In this document: positions 2,718 through 43,400 of the stretch, one piece after another
Layout of the letters: the number at the start of each line of letters is the position of its first letter
Position numbering within the stretch: position 1 is the stretch's first letter
Made by a program: the position numbers and the translations under genes
The notes under the pieces: generated by a model
Database searches by the model: none
What the model saw: the letters and a program-made list of their open reading frames with translations, nothing else
What the model was told of the DNA's origin: nothing
From: Flavobacteriales bacterium
GTDB taxonomy: Bacteria > Bacteroidota > Bacteroidia > Flavobacteriales > UBA7312
Reading direction: 5' to 3'
Assembly: GCA_016779995.1 (NCBI GenBank)
Contig: JADHMO010000001.1
Location: 213,308 to 277,307, forward strand
Length of the DNA: 64,000 bases

Positions 2718-3872
2718 CTAGTCTTTTCGGTACGACTTTGTCAGTTCAAAAACCTCAGCTAAAATATCTTTTTCTACTTGATTAAACTCTATAGCTCGGC
2801 GTTGCATCACTTTTTCTGCCACTTCGAAGACTTTATTTAAGCGATAAGTCATATAACCTGCTGAACCACCCCATGAGAAGGAAGAAACAAAATTACGAGG
2901 AAAACCTGCTCCAAAAACGTTAGCACTAACTCCTACAACCGTTCCAGTGTTAAACATTGTATTGATTCCACATTTTGAATGGTCGCCCATTATAAGACCA
3001 CAAAATTGAAGTCCTGTATTTACAAAGCGTTCAGATGGATAATTCCATAATTTAACCTCAGCATAATTGTTTTTTAAATTGGAATTATTCGTGTCGGCTC
3101 CTAAATTGCACCATTCTCCTAATACAGAATTACCTAAGAAGCCGTCATGTCCTTTGTTGGAATATCCCAACAATACAGAGTTGTTTACTTCTCCCCCAAC
3201 TTTACAATAAGGACCTAAGGTAGTTGCCCCATAAATTTTCGCCCCCATTTTAAGCACTGAGTTTTCGCACATAGCTAATGGTCCTCTGACAATACTTCCT
3301 TCCATAATTTCAGCATTTTTGCCTACATAAATTGGTCCTGTCGAAGCATTAAGAATAGCATGTTCTACTTTTGCACCATCTTCAAGAAAAATATTTTCTG
3401 GATTAGTACAAGCGTTAGTTTCGCTAATGAGTTGAGATGTCCTTCCTGCTGTAAGTAGCTTAAAATCGGATTGAATACATGCATCATTGTACTCAAAAAT
3501 ATGCCACAGTTGTGAAACTTGCATAAAATCGTCTTCATAGGGTATTACCTCATTAGGAATACTTTCCTTACTTCTGTAAGCAATAAGTGTTTCATTCTGC
3601 TTTAAACACTGATTTTCTGATAAAGATTTAATTGCGTCAACTAGATTAATGTCAGGGCAAATAGAACCATTTATCCAAAGGTTATCCTCATTACTAATCA
3701 GAGAAAATTTTTGTTGCAAATAATCTTCTGTATAAAATGAACATTTCGTATTCAAAAAGTGTTCCCATTTCTCAGTTATGGTAAGTATACCAATACGAAT
3801 TTCAGAAACAGGTCGAGTGTATGTTAAAGGAAGAAGATTCCCTCTAGTGTCATCAAATAAAATGTAATTCAT
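2718..3872 (-). CDS. GlmU-like putative sugar nucleotidyltransferase with left-handed beta-helix (Bacteroidota family)
   Basis: LLPLTYTRPVSEIRIGILTI N-terminus, hexapeptide repeats, SNKGHDGFLGNSVLGEWCNLGA. Confidence 0.85.
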   Translation of the reverse strand: MNYILFDDTRGNLLPLTYTRPVSEIRIGILTITEKWEHFLNTKCSFYTEDYLQQKFSLISNEDNLWINGSICPDINLVDAIKSLSENQCLKQNETLIAYRSKESIPNEVIPYEDDFMQVSQLWHIFEYNDACIQSDFKLLTAGRTSQLISETNACTNPENIFLEDGAKVEHAILNASTGPIYVGKNAEIMEGSIVRGPLAMCENSVLKMGAKIYGATTLGPYCKVGGEVNNSVLLGYSNKGHDGFLGNSVLGEWCNLGADTNNSNLKNNYAEVKLWNYPSERFVNTGLQFCGLIMGDHSKCGINTMFNTGTVVGVSANVFGAGFPRNFVSSFSWGGSAGYMTYRLNKVFEVAEKVMQRRAIEFNQVEKDILAEVFELTKSYRKD

Positions 3873-3893
3873 AACAACAAATGTAATAATTAC

Positions 3894-3930
3894 AAAAAAA
3901 GCAAAACTATCATAACTGATAATTTTGCTT
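3894..3930 (-). terminator. Intrinsic terminator downstream of the 3959-4435 gene
   Basis: Hairpin AAGCAAAA-c-TATCA-taac-TGATA-a-TTTTGCTT, followed on the minus strand by a T-run (A7 at 3894-3900 on plus). Confidence 0.6.
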
Positions 3931-3958
3931 TCATAGATGTATTTTATTCTAATTTAAT

Positions 3959-4435
3959 CTAGATACCAAAGCTAAAAACTCCATTTTCTATAACAACACT
4001 ATCTAAATTATTAGCTATGTTATGCAAAGTAGCCGAAAAGCTTCCCGAAATTTCATCTCCATCACTCACCTTCAAATTTATAACAAATCGACTGTTTGAA
4101 TTTTTAGTGTAAGTGTATAAATTATCGTTTTTATCATTAAAATTTATTGAATAACCACTCAATGAATTTACATAATCGGCTTGATCAAAAACTCCAACTC
4201 TAACGGTATCTATTATAAGTTCTAATTGCCCTACATCATCGTTTCTTCCCCAAAATATAGATTGGTTAGAAATTACTCTATCTCCAATGGCAAAAGCTGG
4301 ACAATTCACTTTCTGTGAATTTAATTCATAGGTAAATACATTAGGCACAGATTTCTTCTTTTTACAAGAAGTGTTTAGAAGAAAGAAAATAGAAAGCAAA
4401 ATAAATGCGAAACTAGCAAGATTTAATTTTTTCAT
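3959..4435 (-). CDS. Hypothetical lipoprotein
   Basis: Hydrophobic signal ending in LNTSC followed by KKKK. No family recognised. Confidence 0.7.
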   Translation of the reverse strand: MKKLNLASFAFILLSIFFLLNTSCKKKKSVPNVFTYELNSQKVNCPAFAIGDRVISNQSIFWGRNDDVGQLELIIDTVRVGVFDQADYVNSLSGYSINFNDKNDNLYTYTKNSNSRFVINLKVSDGDEISGSFSATLHNIANNLDSVVIENGVFSFGI

Positions 4436-4532
4436 TTTTTAAGTTATAATTAGTTTTATGAAGAGCACCTTGCTCTTTCATGCGAATCTAGAAGAGTTAG
4501 TGCAATGAAATGTATGACTTAAATCATATTCT

Positions 4533-5630
4533 TTAAGTATTGAACCTAAAATGCATAATATCACCATCGGCAACAACATACTCCTTGCCTTCCACTGACA
4601 TTTTACCATTTTCTTTGCATGCTAATTCAGAACCTAACTCTACAAAATCTGTATATTTAATGACCTCGGCACGAATAAAACCTTTCTCAAAGTCGGTATG
4701 TATTACTCCTGCAGCTTGTGGAGCTTTCATTCCCTCTTTAATGGTCCATGCTCTAACCTCTTTAACTCCTGCCGTAAAATAAGTGGAAAGATTTAACAAC
4801 TGATATGCTGAACGAATAAGTTTACTCACCCCAGGCTCGTCTAAGCCCATATCCTCTAGAAACATTTGGCGTTCTTCATAACTATCAAGTTCTGTTATAT
4901 CTGCTTCTGTAGATGCCGCAATCATTAAAACAGAAGCATCTTCATCTTTTACAATTTCCTTCACTCTATCAACATGAGGATTGCCATTTTTTATGGAAGC
5001 TTCATCAACATTACACACATACATTATTGGTTTATCAGTAAGTAACATTAAGTCAGCAACGTGTTCTTTTTCTTTATCTTCTAAATCTATACTTCTAACT
5101 GATTTACCTTGTTCTAAATGAGCTTTGTATTTGGCTAGAACATCAACAACTTTTCTAGAGTCTTTGTCACCTGTTCGAGATAGCTTTTCATACTTCAGTA
5201 GCTTTTTATCAACAGCTTCTAAATCTTTTAATTGCAATTCTATGTCTATGGTTTCTTTATCTCTAATTGGGTCAACTGAACCATCTACATGAACAATATT
5301 ATCATTTTCAAAACACCTCAACACATGAATAATAGCGTCTGTTTCTCTAATATTAGCTAAGAATTTATTCCCTAAGCCTTCTCCTTTACTAGCTCCTTTT
5401 ACCAATCCAGCAATATCTACAATTTCTATAGTAGTTGGTTGGACTTTTTCAGGTTGTACTAAACGTTCTAACTCATTAAGTCTTTTGTCTGGCACACTAA
5501 TAACACCTACGTTAGGTTCAATAGTACAAAAGGGGAAATTTGCCGATTGCGCTTTGGCATTAGACAAACAATTAAATAATGTCGATTTTCCAACATTTGG
5601 CAAACCTACTATACCACACTTCAAAGCCAT
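4533..5630 (-). CDS. ychF: Redox-regulated ATPase YchF
   Basis: GIVGLPNVGKSTLFN, NFPFCTIEPN, DIAGLVKGASKGEGLGNKFL, HTDFEKGFIRAE. Start moved to MALKCG (5630) because a -7 element lies at 5649-5656. Confidence 0.98.
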   Translation of the reverse strand: MALKCGIVGLPNVGKSTLFNCLSNAKAQSANFPFCTIEPNVGVISVPDKRLNELERLVQPEKVQPTTIEIVDIAGLVKGASKGEGLGNKFLANIRETDAIIHVLRCFENDNIVHVDGSVDPIRDKETIDIELQLKDLEAVDKKLLKYEKLSRTGDKDSRKVVDVLAKYKAHLEQGKSVRSIDLEDKEKEHVADLMLLTDKPIMYVCNVDEASIKNGNPHVDRVKEIVKDEDASVLMIAASTEADITELDSYEERQMFLEDMGLDEPGVSKLIRSAYQLLNLSTYFTAGVKEVRAWTIKEGMKAPQAAGVIHTDFEKGFIRAEVIKYTDFVELGSELACKENGKMSVEGKEYVVADGDIMHFRFNT

Positions 5631-5648
5631 ATCAAAATATATTTTTCG

Positions 5649-5656
5649 CAAAGATA
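5649..5656 (-). promoter_or_regulatory. Bacteroidota sigma-A -7 element for ychF
   Basis: TATCTTTG on the minus strand matches TAnnTTTG, 19 nt upstream of the ATG. Confidence 0.7.
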
Positions 5657-5718
5657 ATCAGCTATTTAAACATTTTTGAAAAAATATTAACAATTGTAAT
5701 TTCCCCTACTAAAAGAAT

Positions 5719-5726
5719 TACATTTG
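5719..5726 (+). promoter_or_regulatory. -7 element for the transketolase operon
   Basis: TACATTTG, 21 nt upstream of the ATG at 5747. Confidence 0.7.
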
Positions 5727-5746
5727 AGAATTAAACTAATTAGACC

Positions 5747-6586
5747 ATGAGTGAGGATTTAAAGGCTATTTGCAATCAAGTTAGAAGAGATATTGTTCGT
5801 ATGGTACATGCTCAAAATTCAGGTCATCCTGGTGGCTCACTCGGTTGCGTTGAGTATTTTGTAGCTCTATATTTCGAAGTTATGAAGCATAATACTGACT
5901 TTGAGATGAATGGTATTGATGAAGATTTATTTTTTCTATCCAACGGTCATATCTCCCCTGTCCTTTATAGTGTGTTAGCAAGAAGAGGATATTTTGATGT
6001 TAAAGAATTATCGACTTTCAGAACCATAAACTCAAGACTTCAGGGACACCCTACCACTCACGATAAACTTCCTGGCGTACGAATTGCCTCAGGCTCTTTA
6101 GGTCAAGGTATGTCAGTAGCAATTGGTGCAGCACTTACTAAAAAATTAAATAATGATTCGTCCATCGTATATAGTTTGCACGGAGATGGTGAATTGCAAG
6201 AAGGGCAAATTTGGGAGGCTGCTATGTATGCTTCTGGCAACAAAGTCGATAATCTAATTTGTACAATTGACTACAATCAAAAGCAAATTGATGGCTCATT
6301 AGAGGAGGTTCTTCCCATGGGAAATATTTCTAATAAATTTAAAGCCTTTGATTGGGAAGTGTTAGAAATAAAGGACGGCAACAACATTTATGATGTTATT
6401 GACGTTTTAAATAAGGCTAAATCATTGTGTGGTAATGGAAAACCCATTTGTATAATTATGCATACTGAAATGGGAAATGGCGTTGATTTCATGATGGGAA
6501 CACACAAATGGCATGGTGTTGCGCCTAACGATGAACAGTTAGCAGATGCTCTGAGTCAAAATCCTGAATCACTTGGTGATTATTAA
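5747..6586 (+). CDS. Transketolase, N-terminal (TPP-binding) subunit
   Basis: SGHPGGSL, LSNGH, LQGHP, GSLGQG, GDGELQEGQIWEA, WHG. Confidence 0.96.
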   Translation: MSEDLKAICNQVRRDIVRMVHAQNSGHPGGSLGCVEYFVALYFEVMKHNTDFEMNGIDEDLFFLSNGHISPVLYSVLARRGYFDVKELSTFRTINSRLQGHPTTHDKLPGVRIASGSLGQGMSVAIGAALTKKLNNDSSIVYSLHGDGELQEGQIWEAAMYASGNKVDNLICTIDYNQKQIDGSLEEVLPMGNISNKFKAFDWEVLEIKDGNNIYDVIDVLNKAKSLCGNGKPICIIMHTEMGNGVDFMMGTHKWHGVAPNDEQLADALSQNPESLGDY

Positions 6587-37213: not shown

Positions 37214-38055
37214 AAAAAGGCGTCTTTTATATGCTAGGTTCTACCCTAGCTTTTGCCCTCATGCAAATCTGTGTGAAGTACTTGCCTCATATTCCAGCCC
37301 ACGAACTCATTTTATTCCGTTCCATCATCTCTATCGTATTGAGTGTGGCTATGCTCCAAAAATTAGGCATACCCCTATTGGGCAACAATAAAAAGGTCTT
37401 ATTGATGCGAGGTATTTTTGGCACTACTGCCCTATTGTTATTTTTCTATACTTTACAAAACATACCCCTAGCCAGTGCAGTGACTTTGCAATACCTCTCG
37501 CCCATCTTTACTGCCCTCTTTGCGGCTATCTTTCTCAAGGAAAAAATGCAAATCAAACAATGGCTTTACTTTGGCATTTCCTTTGCTGGAGTAGCCTTGA
37601 TAAAAGGGTTTGACGAGCGTATTTCCCTAACTTTTATGCTCATAGGTATATGCTCGGCTATGTTTTCAGGTATGGCATACACTTGCATACGCCAACTCAA
37701 AGACACGGAACACCCTGTGGTGGTAGTCTTGTACTTCCCTTTGGTGGCCATTCCCATTATGTCGGTACTGTCCTATTTGAATTGGGTGACACCTCAAGGC
37801 ACAGACTGGCTGTACCTTTTACTGATGGGACTGTTTACTCAAATTGCCCAAATACTGATGACTAAGGGCATACAAAGTGGTGTAGCCAACAAGATGATAA
37901 GTCTTAAGTACGTGGGTACCATTTACGCCTTAGCCATTGGCTACCTCCTCTTTGGGGAAAGTTATGGCATCATGAGTCTATTGGGTATTGCTATGGTTAT
38001 TTCGGGTGTGGTGCTGAATTTGTGGAAGAAAAGGGCGATTAAAAAAAGCACCTAA
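37210..38055 (+). CDS. DMT/EamA family transporter
   Basis: Ten hydrophobic segments with duplicated EamA pattern, FLKEK. Confidence 0.9.
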   Translation: MKKGVFYMLGSTLAFALMQICVKYLPHIPAHELILFRSIISIVLSVAMLQKLGIPLLGNNKKVLLMRGIFGTTALLLFFYTLQNIPLASAVTLQYLSPIFTALFAAIFLKEKMQIKQWLYFGISFAGVALIKGFDERISLTFMLIGICSAMFSGMAYTCIRQLKDTEHPVVVVLYFPLVAIPIMSVLSYLNWVTPQGTDWLYLLLMGLFTQIAQILMTKGIQSGVANKMISLKYVGTIYALAIGYLLFGESYGIMSLLGIAMVISGVVLNLWKKRAIKKST

Positions 38056-38101
38056 GCGGCTAGAATGTAGATGCTTACAAGAAAATACCTATCTTTAGTG
38101 C

Positions 38102-38770
38102 ATGCAATTATCTACTGACATTTTTTCATTTTTTAGCAAATTAGAAGAAAACAATAACCGCGAGTGGTTTGAGCCAAACAAAGCCGAATTTAAAGCTTTG
38201 GAGAAATCTGTCAAGCAGTTTGGCGAGACTCTAAAAGACCAACTCAATACCCACGATAGCGTAGACGGTTTTAAGCTTTTTCGCATCTACCGCGATGTGC
38301 GCTTTTCCAAAAATAAAACACCCTACAAAACCCATTTTGGACTTAACTGGCACCGAAGCAAACCCGAGTTAAGAGGAGGCTACTACCTACACCTCAGCCC
38401 CAATGATATTTTCTTAGCCTGTGGCTTTTGGGATCCTAGCCCAGCAGATCTCCAACGCATCCGCCAAGAATTAGCCGTAGATGGCGATGAGTACCGCCAA
38501 CTGATAAACAAAGCCAACTTTAAAACCATTTGGGGTGAGCTTCACGGCGATGCCGTAAAAACCGCTCCCAAAGGCTTTGCTAAAGACCACCCACACATAG
38601 ACCTATTGCGTTTTAAGCAACACCTCTTTAGTGTACGCTACAGCCAAAGTCAAGCTACTGCACCCGACTTTTTGCAGCGTCTAAACACCGACCTAAAGGC
38701 TGTACGCCCATTTTTAGATTATATGAGTAGTGTGCTAACCAGCAATAGCAATGGGGAGTCTTTGCTCTAA
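38102..38770 (+). CDS. DUF2461 (TIGR02453) family protein
   Basis: NNNREWF, FRIYRDVRFSKNKTPYK, KTAPKGF, HIDLLR. Confidence 0.93.
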   Translation: MQLSTDIFSFFSKLEENNNREWFEPNKAEFKALEKSVKQFGETLKDQLNTHDSVDGFKLFRIYRDVRFSKNKTPYKTHFGLNWHRSKPELRGGYYLHLSPNDIFLACGFWDPSPADLQRIRQELAVDGDEYRQLINKANFKTIWGELHGDAVKTAPKGFAKDHPHIDLLRFKQHLFSVRYSQSQATAPDFLQRLNTDLKAVRPFLDYMSSVLTSNSNGESLL

Positions 38771-38836
38771 GGAATAAGTGTTTTTGTGGTACAAGAAGAT
38801 GCTCGCGCTAGCGGGGGGTATTAAGATTTAAGCTTG

Positions 38837-41365
38837 TTAGTTACTACCAATTGGAATAATTTCAAAATGAAAGTTTACTGGTGTCGAATAGCTTATTTTT
38901 TCAAAATTCCTGTGAAATTTTTTAAACTCATGAAGATATTTTAAATCAAATCTCATTAAACTTATCAAAAATGGTTTGAATAAATGTTTACCGCTAAAAA
39001 GAATATCGACAACTTCGAAAATATAATATTTATCTGATCTATAGTCTTTTTTAATCAAACTTAATAAAAACTGATCGTAATCTTTCTTAACGAATTCTAA
39101 CATTATTTCAATAGCTTCTGTCCAATAAATTTTGTGCCTATCATTAACATCAAAACAACAATAAAACAACCTATATACTTCATCATCTATTGATTCAATT
39201 TGCTCTGTATATTTTGTTAAATAATTAAGCATAATTCTTTTTCTATCACATGAATTTAAAACAACATTTGAATTAAATTCGTTCAAACGTCGTAATACAC
39301 CAGACTCAAAATAATATGGAGGATTTGCATTTTGAAATTGTTTAATTAAAAACTCATAAAACGGTTCTTTTTCCTTCGAATAATATTTGTTTACAATACA
39401 GTTTTCATAATTATTTAACTTATTTATCAAGTTAGTATCATCATATCTTACATTTACTCTATATTTTAATAGATTAGATTTTTGGTTTACTAAATAAAAA
39501 ATACTTGAAATTACTTTTTCATAATCATCTCTATTGTCATATTGCCTTATTATTTCTAGTTCTCTTGCAATTTCTAACTCTAATCCATCAGATATCCACT
39601 TATCAATTGAGTTTTTAAAATCATTAAAACTGCTTCTCCTAGCTTTAGAAAATTGTATTCGAGGAATTTTTGAAATTGGAATCATATATGAAAAATAAAT
39701 ATCAAACATACTTGGATAAACTATAGAAAGTTTATCACTTGAAAAACTTCTACAAAATAAATTTTCATCTAAGTGTGAACTGATTTTTTCTATTTCATTT
39801 GAAGAAAGAAAATATTTTAAACTATTCTCTTCCAAGTAACGATATAAAGTTATTTTTAGCGGTAGGCTATCAACATTATTTTCTTTTTTTAATTTATATG
39901 TAAAATCATTTCCACTTGATTGTGTTTCAAAAAATTCAAGTGGCTTATCTTTAATTAAATCATATACATCTGGGTAGAAAACTCTCAAAACTTCAATGCT
40001 GAAGAAGTCATATAAATCGACATTCCCAATTAATTTTCCAAAATTTAAACAAAAAGAATTTGACAGTCTTGTTACATCTCTTTTAGATTTTAGCCAGTCA
40101 TTTAAAATTTTTCTAATCTTATTATCATATTTATAACCTTTAAAATAAAAAAACTGTTCCTTCTCAATAATATCTGGAAATACTTCTTTAACATTAATAT
40201 AAAACTGTTGCTCAAGTACATTCTTTGGGATTAAAGGCAAACTGATTTCTAGTTGAAAAATCTTTTCTAAGTACTTTCTTTCATTGAAGCAATTGTGTGA
40301 CTTAATAGCACTTACCACATAGTTTCTGTCATATGCAACTAAAAAAAAGGTATTTCGGAAGTTTGCTGTATTACGAATCAATTTCAAAACCTCAATAATT
40401 TCACTAGTTGAAAGTCTATCAACATCATCAATAAAAATAATTAACTTTTTATCTATAGCTGAAAGAGTTGTATTTATTTCGCTATATAAAGTGTCAGTTG
40501 ATAAAGGTTTAAAAAAATATATCAAAAATTCATGTATTAATTTGATAGCAAGGTTAGAATTCAAATTTTGTACTTCTTTTGAATATCTTCTTATCAGTCT
40601 ACTTAAAGATAAGCTGTAAACTCTCAAATTTTCATCTAATATTTTAAAGAAATTCTGAACAATCGAATTAGAGTTTTTACTAGCCCAAACATTAAATTCA
40701 ATTGTTATAACATCGTCATTTTTCAATTTCTTTTGAAGTAAATCAATAAAAGATGTTTTCCCCATTCCCCAACTAGCATTAAGACCTATTGCAAAAGAAT
40801 TATCAAAATTGCTTTCCAATATTTTTTTTGATAATTGTGAAACATAATTAGAATATCCAAATTCATCCTCCCCATTTTCTCCTAATGATTCCTCATTAAA
40901 AAAGGCATCTTTAGAATTTAAAGGATTAATTACAGCTAATTTGCTTGTGTGAAGCACTAACCTAAATAATGTCAATAGAAGTATTACATCTAAATAATAA
41001 AAATTATCATTTAAAAAAAACTCTTCAAACCTCCATACTGAATCAACTTTAAATCTGTAAAAACTTAAATATATTAAGCTAATTAAAATTAATATTTTAC
41101 TAAAGTTTTTTGAAGGTTTGAATCTTTTGAAATCATAAATCATTGTAATAATTCCAATTAAAACTAGAATAATAAAAATCAAATCGACAGGATATGATTT
41201 TTCGATAAATGAAAATAAATACTCAACTAATGAGTTTGAAATAATATTTTCGATCAATCTTTTAAATAAAATAAATAATGAAATTGAAATAAAAAAGAAT
41301 AAGAAGTCACTTGATATTATAAACCTATATATTTTATTTATCCAATTTTTAGAATAAATTTTCAT
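38837..41365 (-). CDS. KAP family P-loop NTPase with four N-terminal TM helices
   Basis: AIGLNASWGMGKTS (Walker A), LIIFIDDVDRL (Walker B), FLVAYD, YLEKIFQ, RDVTRLSN. Confidence 0.88.
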   Translation of the reverse strand: MKIYSKNWINKIYRFIISSDFLFFFISISLFILFKRLIENIISNSLVEYLFSFIEKSYPVDLIFIILVLIGIITMIYDFKRFKPSKNFSKILILISLIYLSFYRFKVDSVWRFEEFFLNDNFYYLDVILLLTLFRLVLHTSKLAVINPLNSKDAFFNEESLGENGEDEFGYSNYVSQLSKKILESNFDNSFAIGLNASWGMGKTSFIDLLQKKLKNDDVITIEFNVWASKNSNSIVQNFFKILDENLRVYSLSLSRLIRRYSKEVQNLNSNLAIKLIHEFLIYFFKPLSTDTLYSEINTTLSAIDKKLIIFIDDVDRLSTSEIIEVLKLIRNTANFRNTFFLVAYDRNYVVSAIKSHNCFNERKYLEKIFQLEISLPLIPKNVLEQQFYINVKEVFPDIIEKEQFFYFKGYKYDNKIRKILNDWLKSKRDVTRLSNSFCLNFGKLIGNVDLYDFFSIEVLRVFYPDVYDLIKDKPLEFFETQSSGNDFTYKLKKENNVDSLPLKITLYRYLEENSLKYFLSSNEIEKISSHLDENLFCRSFSSDKLSIVYPSMFDIYFSYMIPISKIPRIQFSKARRSSFNDFKNSIDKWISDGLELEIARELEIIRQYDNRDDYEKVISSIFYLVNQKSNLLKYRVNVRYDDTNLINKLNNYENCIVNKYYSKEKEPFYEFLIKQFQNANPPYYFESGVLRRLNEFNSNVVLNSCDRKRIMLNYLTKYTEQIESIDDEVYRLFYCCFDVNDRHKIYWTEAIEIMLEFVKKDYDQFLLSLIKKDYRSDKYYIFEVVDILFSGKHLFKPFLISLMRFDLKYLHEFKKFHRNFEKISYSTPVNFHFEIIPIGSN

Positions 41366-42135
41366 TTTTTCACTGCTTTATAACCCATTGTAGATAAACT
41401 TCCCTTATTATCATACAAGGTCATATTCATTTCATCATCAATCACATAATATTCGCCGTCTTTACTTCCAATTACAAAATATTTATTACCTATTTTTTCT
41501 AATCTTTCAATTTTATTATTAAAGTCAGGAATAATGCCCTTATATTCTCCATTTGACACATGAATCTCATAGGTATATGAGAAATTAGCTGAAGTATTTA
41601 TAATCGTCCACTTACCAAATAAATTAGATTCAGTTTGAGGTGTTGGCTTTTGTTCATCTACTACCACCTGATTATCTGATGAAAATGCTTGACTAAAAAT
41701 TTGACTAAAATTTCTTGTTATTTCATTTTCTTGTCCTTTTGAATCAACATAAGCTAATGCTAATTGTTCTAAGTCACCTACAACAATTCTTTTTTTAATT
41801 AATAAATCAGAAGCAGGGTTGTTTTTAAGCACATACAACTTTATTAACCAATCGTTATATGGTCCTCCATTACCTAATCCATACGTTTTAAAATCGTCTT
41901 CATCTTTAAATTCGACTAACTGATAATAAAGTGATTTAAATTCTTCAAATACTATTTCAAATTTTTCTTCATCATTCAATTTCGGCTTGTTGTTCTTTTT
42001 CTTTTTAACTATTGTATTCTCTAGTTTTTGCTCAGTTATCGCTTCCTCAGTCTTATTTTTTGAATTGTCACTTTCATCTTTAGTTAAGTATACTATTACA
42101 GCACTTACAATAATTATAAAATATATTTTTTTCAT
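41362..42135 (-). CDS. Hypothetical membrane-anchored protein, translationally coupled to the KAP NTPase
   Basis: N-terminal hydrophobic anchor. Its stop overlaps the KAP start by 4 nt (ATGA). Confidence 0.7.
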   Translation of the reverse strand: MKKIYFIIIVSAVIVYLTKDESDNSKNKTEEAITEQKLENTIVKKKKNNKPKLNDEEKFEIVFEEFKSLYYQLVEFKDEDDFKTYGLGNGGPYNDWLIKLYVLKNNPASDLLIKKRIVVGDLEQLALAYVDSKGQENEITRNFSQIFSQAFSSDNQVVVDEQKPTPQTESNLFGKWTIINTSANFSYTYEIHVSNGEYKGIIPDFNNKIERLEKIGNKYFVIGSKDGEYYVIDDEMNMTLYDNKGSLSTMGYKAVKK

Positions 42136-42202
42136 GCTTTCATTTTTTCATATTCCTAAATGAGGGATATCAAAAATGAAGTGTTAAGGTTTGGAGTTGT
42201 AT

Positions 42203-42634
42203 TTATGTTTCTTCACGAACTACATATTCTTTAATAGTTTGGGTGCGTTTGGCTATGCGTTCTTTCAGTTCTTCCAAATTATCTGAATACTCAAAATCCA
42301 TCAAGTGGGGGTTGTTGGGGTTGAGGTTGTTATTCAGATTAAAATAGATGATTTTTAAGTGTTTGGTATAGCCTGGCATAATGGTACAACCCAAATATTT
42401 TATTTCTGGGCTTTTCTTTAAATGGTTTTCCAAATGGCGTTTGCAAGGCTTATAATGAGGAAACTTTATCACTCTATATTCTATGCAGTAAGTTTCATAA
42501 CTAAAATCGTGGGCATAAATACCTGGGCAATCGACCCAAAACCACCACCATTTTTTTATTTGTGCCCAAAATTCTTCTCTACTTTTTCCGTAGGCATCCG
42601 TATATATTCTTTTTTTAATTCTAAATTTATCCAT
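42203..42634 (-). CDS. Hypothetical protein (Trp-rich, possibly phage-like)
   Basis: 143-aa ATG ORF with FWAQIKKWWWFW motif, in line with the neighbouring minus-strand genes. Confidence 0.6.
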   Translation of the reverse strand: MDKFRIKKRIYTDAYGKSREEFWAQIKKWWWFWVDCPGIYAHDFSYETYCIEYRVIKFPHYKPCKRHLENHLKKSPEIKYLGCTIMPGYTKHLKIIYFNLNNNLNPNNPHLMDFEYSDNLEELKERIAKRTQTIKEYVVREET

Positions 42635-43376: not shown

Positions 43377-43400
43377 AACCCATGCGGTTAAACATGGGTT
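43377..43400. terminator. Hairpin between the HAD and SIMPL genes (possible terminator or processing site)
   Basis: AACCCATG-cggttaaa-CATGGGTT. No clean T-tail on the minus strand. Confidence 0.35.

Follow-up and report, generated by a model that had tools for sequence, protein, structure and literature searches.

A KAP-family NTPase with an N-terminal membrane module and a co-transferred partner gene in a Flavobacteriales genome: a candidate phage-defence protein

A stretch of 64,000 nucleotides (nt) from a Flavobacteriales bacterium (contig JADHMO010000001.1 of assembly GCA_016779995.1), referred to below as the window, carries a two-gene islet which encodes an 842-amino-acid (aa) protein of the KAP NTPase family and, directly upstream, a 257-aa membrane-anchored protein that we call the partner. 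With about even confidence we propose that the KAP protein is a self-contained defence NTPase of the inner membrane which, like PifA and Tmn, would combine sensor and effector in one polypeptide, and that the partner is a lineage-specific accessory. A role in defence is plausible in view of the restriction-modification (R-M) and defence-island contexts in which homologues are found, the AT-richness of the genes and their recent horizontal transfer. The features of the islet and its surroundings are compiled in Table 1.

Both genes lie on the minus strand, and the TGA of the partner gene and the ATG of the KAP gene share 4 nt (ATGA) at the junction ...GTGAAAAAATGAAAATT.... This overlap with an upstream anchored protein had been pointed out in an earlier note made from the DNA letters alone, and the open reading frames (ORFs) and the junction sequence agree with it. 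The low G + C content (GC) described there was likewise found: it amounted to 0.21-0.28 over positions 38750-42250 when calculated in 500-nt steps, compared to 0.43-0.47 towards lower coordinates and 0.35-0.40 towards higher ones. Calculated per gene, the GC was 0.239 for KAP, 0.274 for the partner, 0.340 for the neighbouring 143-aa ORF (orf143) and 0.442 for the DUF2461 gene on the opposite flank.

Residues 171-437 of the KAP protein matched the Pfam family KAP_NTPase (PF07693) with an E-value of 2.3e-38 and 132.6 bits (cut-off 20), covering profile positions 1-285 of 293. The Walker A (A197SWGMGKT204) and Walker B (L308IIFIDD314) motifs are intact, as the earlier note had read them, and are invariant in an alignment of 45 sequences, and so are the core residues G200, G202, K203, D314, D316 and R317. 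Hydropathy analysis according to Kyte and Doolittle revealed hydrophobic segments at residues ~14-34, 58-77, 88-103 and 120-140, and all of them coincide with helices in the AlphaFold model, which bears out the four N-terminal hydrophobic helices proposed before. In this membrane module Y99, R104, W111, Y124 and D126 are invariant and D61 is near-invariant in the same alignment; invariant polar and aromatic residues at such positions argue for a module that may be more than a passive anchor. A loop rich in lysine and arginine (residues 78-87) and the basic N-terminus fit, by the positive-inside rule, a predicted topology with the N-terminus inside and the NTPase in the cytoplasm. All segments are located upstream of profile position 1 (residue 171), and no transmembrane (TM) segment lies between Walker A and Walker B. 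TM helices within the NTPase domain were reportedly described by Aravind et al. in 2004 for eukaryotic and some bacterial KAP members; by hydropathy, the KAP protein of the window has no TM insertion inside this domain.

The AlphaFold model of the KAP protein, with a mean predicted local distance difference test score (pLDDT) of 82, comprises the TM helices and an alpha/beta core, followed by a long C-terminal region made up of helices. The part following the NTPase is helical and was modelled with a pLDDT of mostly 85-95. No domain of Pfam, NCBIfam or PADLOC was recognised in the residues beyond ~570, and a pore, channel or nuclease domain was not identifiable in the KAP protein, in line with the long uncharacterised helical C-terminus lacking a recognisable nuclease that had been noted earlier.

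The KAP protein belongs to a large family. More than 240 full-length homologue clusters were found, mostly of 830-880 aa and aligned across 95-99% of their length, and a relative is encoded by at least 435 stretches from species-representative genomes. Genomic contexts were read from ~80 of these loci, nearly all of them from Bacteroidota (Bacteroidales, Cytophagales, Chitinophagales, Sphingobacteriales and Flavobacteriales). The family, with proteins of ~860 aa, is conserved from end to end, with invariant columns in the membrane module, the P-loop core and the C-terminal region of the 45 aligned sequences; the NTPase core is the best-conserved region (column identity 0.48), and three to five N-terminal TM segments were predicted by hydropathy throughout these 45 homologues. 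In 65 of 71 loci the KAP gene had a lower GC than the distal flanking DNA, the median difference being -7 points.

The gene directly upstream of the KAP gene differs among the ~80 loci in strand, size (40-925 aa) and spacing, and clustering of 1070 neighbour proteins gave no neighbour family present in more than 10 of the loci. Taken together with the absence of the partner from all other loci (see below), this suggests a KAP protein that may well be self-contained. Among the neighbours, R-M genes recur. In two loci (L007 and L009) the KAP gene directly follows the gene of an MmeI-type IIG enzyme, either separated from it by 4 nt or overlapping it by 4 nt; in two others (L045 and L055) it is located within a type I R-M operon, between hsdM and hsdS/hsdR, and in L082 it directly follows hsdS. 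Listed alongside these last three loci for KAP homologues associated with type I R-M are L043, L063, L018 and L020. Other coupled neighbours encode Shedu SduA (L084), an HNH protein (L011), a DUF559 nuclease-like protein (L073) and an HATPase together with a DUF4325 protein (L016), and in one locus Kiwa KwaAB and GmrSD are found a few kb from the KAP homologue. Overlaps of 4 nt join the KAP gene of L043 to the calcineurin-like phosphoesterase gene before it and to a gene of 353 aa after it; such coupled genes are possibly lineage-specific partners in other branches.

A comparison with the PADLOC models is consistent with a family that frequently resides in defence islands. The 126 nearest neighbours matched 227 model families (1.8 per protein), among them DISARM, type I/IIG R-M, KwaB, AbiL and AriA-like families, compared to 149 families (1.2 per protein) for 126 genes located 7-10 kb away and 5 weak generic families (0.1 per protein) for 50 housekeeping ORFs of the window; the comparison is crude, as redundant families were counted, the 7-10 kb control includes defence genes and the window ORFs are a rough baseline, and the enrichment is treated as qualitative. 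This crudeness weighs against a role in defence, and so do further points. Several homologues stand beside housekeeping genes (for transketolase, UvrB and a CCG-domain protein), and the 50 other ORFs of the window are all housekeeping ORFs among which the islet stands alone. The defence role of this KAP family is predicted from sequence, phage exclusion as the primary role of PifA has itself been questioned by some authors, and since a domain for a pore, a channel or a nuclease could not be identified, the case for the TM module as an effector is one of analogy.

The housekeeping neighbours, the absence of a recognisable effector domain and the doubts about PifA favour an alternative in which the KAP protein would serve the cell as an NTPase for signalling or assembly at the membrane and would stand close to defence genes only because it resides in variable regions of the genome; in the original description of the KAP family, Aravind et al. 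reportedly proposed in 2004 that such NTPases regulate membrane complexes in an NTP-dependent manner. We consider a non-defence role unlikely, because the repeated insertion between hsdM and hsdS/hsdR and the close link to MmeI-type enzymes are what one expects of defence cargo, as are the patchy distribution, the low GC, the recent horizontal transfer and the fast-evolving C-terminal regions, and because KAP proteins with a similar layout do defend in experiments (see below).

The evidence for transfer comes from the locus of the only close KAP relative (P0002 in L001), which is 88% identical and is encoded at the corresponding site of its chromosome, flanked by the SIMPL and the EamA/MeaB genes. 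The pair is located at positions 5561-6004 and 6001-8523 of L001, with the 4-nt overlap kept. The blastn identity to L001 was 92.6% over positions 38817-41651 of the window and 85% over 41987-42141, whereas the flanks were 69-80% identical or not homologous; thus the shared segment extends from 6 nt before the ATG of the partner gene to 20 nt past the stop codon of the KAP gene. Positions 41652-41986, which encode the middle domain of the partner, are absent from L001. Accordingly, the partner has 147 aa there, with ~110 internal residues missing in frame and with 70% identity in the anchor and 82% in the C-terminal domain. The synonymous divergence (dS) between the two loci amounted to 0.14 for the KAP gene and 0.20 for the partner gene, but to 1.5-2.4 for the flanking EamA, MeaB and SIMPL genes, showing that the two genes were exchanged as a cassette long after the two chromosomes had diverged. 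The ratio of nonsynonymous to synonymous divergence (dN/dS) was 0.41 for KAP, 0.53 for the partner and 0.02-0.20 for the flanks. Within the KAP gene it was 0.25-0.27 for the TM module and the core, 0.94 for aa 446-560 and 0.59 for aa 561-842, a pattern which fits a putative fast-evolving specificity region. A phage or prophage origin of the cassette was considered and rejected on the scarcity of relatives: 2.9 million viral contigs contained only two partial KAP relatives and one partial partner relative, and PHROGs gave a single match, to a family of unknown function.

If the KAP protein is a defence NTPase, its cytoplasmic helical C-terminal regions would recognise a phage-derived trigger, and nucleotide binding or hydrolysis by the KAP core would lead to a conformational or oligomeric change. 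This change would be passed to the conserved four-helix membrane module, which may alter permeability or ion balance, with the result that infection is aborted or arrested. Such a mechanism has precedents in PifA, which causes a membrane leak, and in the unrelated membrane NTPase Tmn, which exports Mg2+. What the sequences show is the layout of the protein, its relatedness and conservation, the gene neighbourhoods and the recent joint transfer; defence as the function, the trigger, the membrane module as effector and the part played by the partner are inferred by analogy with PifA, the EF_KAP class (see below) and Tmn. The partner would then be an accessory that is anchored in the inner membrane and faces the periplasm, either as a modulator or as independent envelope cargo, and would not define the system.

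Hydropathy analysis gave one hydrophobic stretch for the partner, at its N-terminus (residues 4-17). The partner consists of a signal-anchor (aa 1-18), a disordered linker, a helical domain (aa ~52-155) and a beta-rich domain (aa ~165-257); in the AlphaFold model (pLDDT 85) the middle domain is helical and the beta domain is built from eight strands. The protein had no match in Pfam, NCBIfam, PADLOC or PHROGs, and the search with its model gave no significant match in the PDB or among viral structures, with the beta domain being weakly lipocalin/LolA-like. A word-indexed search found the query only, but the resulting idea of an orphan protein was discarded as a sensitivity artefact, since an exhaustive HMMER search gave 378 relatives, 118 of them at E <= 1e-10. 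The two domains of the family (~50-155 and ~165-257) are found jointly or singly among these relatives. Most of the full-length relatives start with a lipoprotein-type signal ending in Cys, and from these signals it follows that the family is exported and that the soluble domains of the partner should face the periplasm. The partner of the window is without that Cys and resembles an uncleaved signal-anchor.

Relatives of the partner were searched for within 10 kb of the KAP gene in 83 loci, including the window, by phmmer and jackhmmer with the whole protein and with the separate domains, and were found in the window and in L001/L002 only. Conversely, none of the 16 partner-family loci examined contained a KAP gene; one scan with a 7-sequence alignment had given five such loci, and several others sit on contigs of 1-1.5 kb. 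Since neither family is found with the other outside these few loci, the pairing of KAP and partner is lineage-specific. Among the neighbours of the partner family are genes for fucose utilisation, an EF-G-like gene and, close to integrases, small unknown genes. In L095-L100, partner relatives of 228-231 aa follow a conserved gene of 106 aa with a 1-nt overlap or a 2-nt gap; tyrosine-integrase genes are located a few kb away, and an ion-channel-like gene or DUF2752/bPH_1 genes adjoin. The arrangement in L095-L100 suggests that the exported partner family is itself a frequent cargo of mobile elements.

These findings bear on the question of whether the islet is an obligate two-gene system, in which the partner would be required, either as an extracytoplasmic sensor of adsorption or injection or as a gate or inhibitor acting on the conserved periplasmic loops predicted for the KAP protein. 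The 4-nt overlap, kept in both known copies, and the exact co-transfer of the partner would fit an obligatory partner in this lineage and to that extent weigh against a self-contained KAP protein: the transferred segment is bounded so closely to the two genes that they move jointly. Furthermore, the dN/dS of the partner stays at 0.53, the deletion in L001 is in frame and leaves the partner's anchor and C-terminal domain in place, an inner-membrane location is predicted for the two proteins, and the invariant residues R104 and W111 of the KAP protein lie in a predicted periplasmic loop. We nevertheless regard an obligate pair as rather unlikely, since a partner relative is missing near the KAP gene in all of the ~80 other loci and a KAP protein in all 16 partner-family loci, the helical middle domain of the partner is dispensable in a close relative, partner relatives are found beside fucose genes, the EF-G-like gene and integrase-linked small genes, and the remaining KAP family evidently works without a partner. 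Quite unlikely, in our view, is a partner that forms the extracytoplasmic component of an "outside-in" two-protein phage sensor, which would sense or gate adsorption or DNA injection and signal via the conserved periplasmic loops and the TM bundle of the KAP protein to the cytoplasmic NTPase, the two genes being mobilised as an exactly bounded cassette at a hotspot that is conserved on the chromosome.

Tight translational coupling and joint mobility would also be expected of a selfish addiction or toxin-like module, in which a deregulated membrane NTPase is toxic, its co-translated partner restrains it and both are transferred together with no link to phages. Toxicity of a membrane-active protein is plausible, but the rest of the KAP family persists without the partner, the soluble domains of the partner are predicted to be exported and thus away from the cytoplasmic NTPase, and no likeness to known toxins or antitoxins was found; such a module is very improbable. 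Of the sensor-effector pair suggested in the earlier note there remains a pair of genes that travels as one cassette with its overlap kept, and with it a possible functional link confined to this lineage; the absence of the partner from the other KAP loci speaks against a pair of wider occurrence, and a conserved pair of partner and cytoplasmic NTPase is not supported in view of the predicted export of the partner's soluble domains. A self-contained KAP protein with a lineage-specific accessory is the reading that we retain.

Table 1 Features of the KAP/partner islet and its surroundings (positions in the window)
Feature	Position	Strand	Basis
KAP-family NTPase gene, 842 aa: four-TM module, PifA-like KAP core, helical C-terminal region	38837-41365	-	ORF, Pfam, PADLOC, AlphaFold
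Predicted membrane module at the N-terminus (aa 1-150) with four predicted TM helices	40916-41365	-	hydropathy, alignment, model
KAP P-loop NTPase core (aa 171-445)	40031-40855	-	Pfam, invariant residues
Walker A (aa 197-204)	40754-40777	-	alignment, sequence
Walker B/DxDR (aa 308-317)	40415-40444	-	alignment, sequence
Post-NTPase helical regions (aa 446-842), candidate sensor/specificity part	38840-40030	-	model, dN/dS, no domain match
Partner gene, 257 aa: signal-anchor, disordered linker, helical middle domain, beta-rich C-terminal domain	41362-42135	-	ORF, HMMER, AlphaFold
ATGA stop/start overlap of partner and KAP genes	41362-41365	-	sequence
Recently shared two-gene cassette	38817-42141		blastn, dS
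20-nt junction motif CCCGCTAGCGCGAGCATCTT, just beyond the 3' cassette boundary	38796-38815	-	unique in window, 0 expected by chance
Adjacent ORF of 143 aa (orf143), GC 0.34, outside the shared cassette	42203-42634	-	ORF

The surroundings of the cassette differ between the window and L001 on both sides. In the window (38039-38816) a DUF2461 gene (38102-38770, plus strand, native-like GC of 0.44) is located between the cassette and EamA; it is absent in L001, where the cassette directly abuts the end of EamA. On the other side, the window has orf143, which starts 6 nt past the SIMPL gene and ends 67 nt upstream of the partner gene on the same strand. The encoded protein has a Trp-rich N-terminal stretch (KKWWWFWVDCPG) and no match in Pfam, NCBIfam, PADLOC or PHROGs, and a counterpart was not found in L001. 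At the position of orf143, L001 contains four low-GC genes (333, 46, 95 and 377 aa; 2746-5487), several of which encode TM segments or signal sequences and for which no family was assigned apart from a weak PHROG match of the 95-aa protein; they are alternative cargo at the same hotspot. The differing neighbours on both sides mark the site between SIMPL and EamA as a variable hotspot.

A motif related to the 20-nt junction motif, CCCGCTAACTCGAGCATCTT, is found at positions 5512-5531 (plus strand) of L001, just outside the 5' boundary of the cassette (L001/L002). The motif is absent from the 101 other loci compared, occurs as a single copy per sequence and matched viral contigs three times, which is about chance by a rough estimate. 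It could be a recombination or target site, or the junction of a circularly permuted cassette, with two observations to go by. An integron-like or att-like signature was rejected, since there are no notable flanking direct or inverted repeats and the motif is single-copy.

The SIMPL, orf143, partner and KAP genes are all encoded on the minus strand with spacings of 6 nt, 67 nt and the 4-nt overlap and may form one transcription unit. A terminator-like hairpin (43377-43400, minus strand) is located between an HAD-hydrolase gene and the SIMPL gene, and no terminator-like site was found downstream of the KAP gene. Matches in a sigma-70 promoter scan, with a model not made for promoters of Bacteroidota, were no more frequent than in shuffled sequence, and Rfam gave zero RNA genes across the window.

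The prediction that KAP NTPases take part in membrane-linked defence is two decades old, but phage protection by KAP NTPases was not shown until 2025-26, in Firmicutes (PMC13552941). The KAP protein of the window is a member of a large, uncharacterised branch of Bacteroidota, with four conserved TM helices, a PifA-like core and a C-terminal region of its own. If this is a defence family, the PifA/KAP paradigm would reach into a phylum in which phage defence has been little explored, and the family would provide a tractable model of a P-loop switch coupled to a membrane effector; some caution would then be due, because annotation pipelines will call such proteins PifA from a partial match. The sharply bounded cassette in two diverged genomes is, besides, a clean natural example of the exchange of defence-like cargo at a fixed hotspot.

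Of the known systems, PifA is the one with which homology was found. PifA of the F plasmid of E. coli (Pif in DefenseFinder) excludes T7-like phages abortively, with gp1.2/gp10 as triggers, and associates peripherally with the membrane. The KAP protein of the window matched the PADLOC PifA model (PDLC02361) with an E-value of 1.3e-52 and 177 bits, and members of the family scored 160-206 bits. For comparison, the PifA of the F plasmid was taken from NC_002483, where its gene lies downstream of pifC. BLASTP gave 24% identity over residues 166-537 (E 8e-22), hhalign of the KAP family against PifA a probability of 99.7% for columns 157-476 alone, and tblastn matches on plasmids were confined to residues ~155-575 with 22-26% identity. 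The KAP core aligned with residues 16-366 of F PifA and, including the adjacent helical region, residues ~157-570 of the window protein correspond to PifA ~16-430. A match to a described system is thus given for the core, and it ends there: F PifA spans positions 2-718 of the 720 of its own model (963 bits) whereas the KAP family covers only ~4-460, and the C-terminal ~270 residues of PifA are unrelated to the C-terminal part of the KAP family. PifA acts at the membrane and causes depolarisation and leakage (cited in PMC13001434 and PMC8594841) and is described as devoid of TM helices in the preprint PMC13001434; indeed, its highest hydropathy over 19 residues was 1.27, with no TM-grade segment, whereas the window family has the N-terminal TM module added. 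In F, the repressor gene pifC precedes pifA, but the gene upstream of KAP in the window is unrelated to PifC (best BLASTP E-value 1.1). The hosts differ as well, Enterobacteria for PifA and Bacteroidota for the window family. Judged by its sequence, the KAP protein has a PifA-like core and yet departs from PifA in three of its defining features. The candidate new anti-phage system of the earlier note is accordingly upheld as a plausible defence protein and not as a conserved new kind of two-gene system, given the homology to PifA and a partner that is not conserved.

Tmn is a mechanistic analogue. According to a 2026 preprint (PMC13001434), it is a membrane NTPase of the YobI family which forms a decamer, exports Mg2+, senses phage RIIB via helical arms and has no conserved operon. 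It shares with the window protein the layout of a membrane P-loop NTPase with putative sensor and effector in one protein and a variable helical C-terminus that sets, or in the window protein may set, specificity. Unlike the window protein, Tmn belongs to YobI and not to KAP and has two TM helices in the P-loop domain after Walker A. PADLOC has Tmn models, since the preprint identifies Tmn from PADLOC results, and the KAP protein of the window gave no match to the Tmn model at E <= 0.1.

The structure search that the earlier note had suggested yielded, for the partner, nothing significant, as described above, and for the KAP model best matches to RdrA of RADAR (8hr8, E 1.5e-6), followed by ORC/Cdc6 and plant NLR resistosomes, switch ATPases (of STAND/ORC type) that all oligomerise; the TM-scores were low (0.25-0.30). 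This likeness of the model suggests a possible oligomerising NTPase with a helical array. The KAP family profile gave no sequence-level match to solved structures, RdrA included. RADAR was rejected, as the fold likeness is weak, PADLOC gave no RdrA match and no gene for an RdrB deaminase is located nearby. Likewise, Qat was rejected, since the NCBIfam QatA model gave 49.7 bits with a cut-off of 600 and no Qat genes are among the neighbours (partner, orf143, SIMPL and DUF2461). Membership in Qat, RADAR, Tmn or Pif with PifC was thus rejected in each case.

The closest counterparts in layout are single-gene proteins described in 2026 (PLoS Biol, PMC13552941), namely EF_KAP of Enterococcus faecalis and three gut-metagenome proteins from Firmicutes, which consist of TM helices, a KAP domain and an uncharacterised C-terminus and protect Enterococcus from phages; the Walker B motif and the C-terminal region were needed for protection (PMC13552941). 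The KAP protein of the window has the same layout of TM helices, KAP P-loop and large unknown C-terminus, and this class comes as a single gene without a conserved partner; the C-terminal regions of the class are reported to be diverse, and the likeness is drawn from the published description. Of the two TM helices described for EF_KAP, the first is N-terminal and the other lies inside the KAP domain, whereas all four helices of the window protein precede the domain. The KAP protein of the window therefore fits the recently validated class of single-gene TM-KAP proteins, with a distinct arrangement of its TM helices and in a different phylum.

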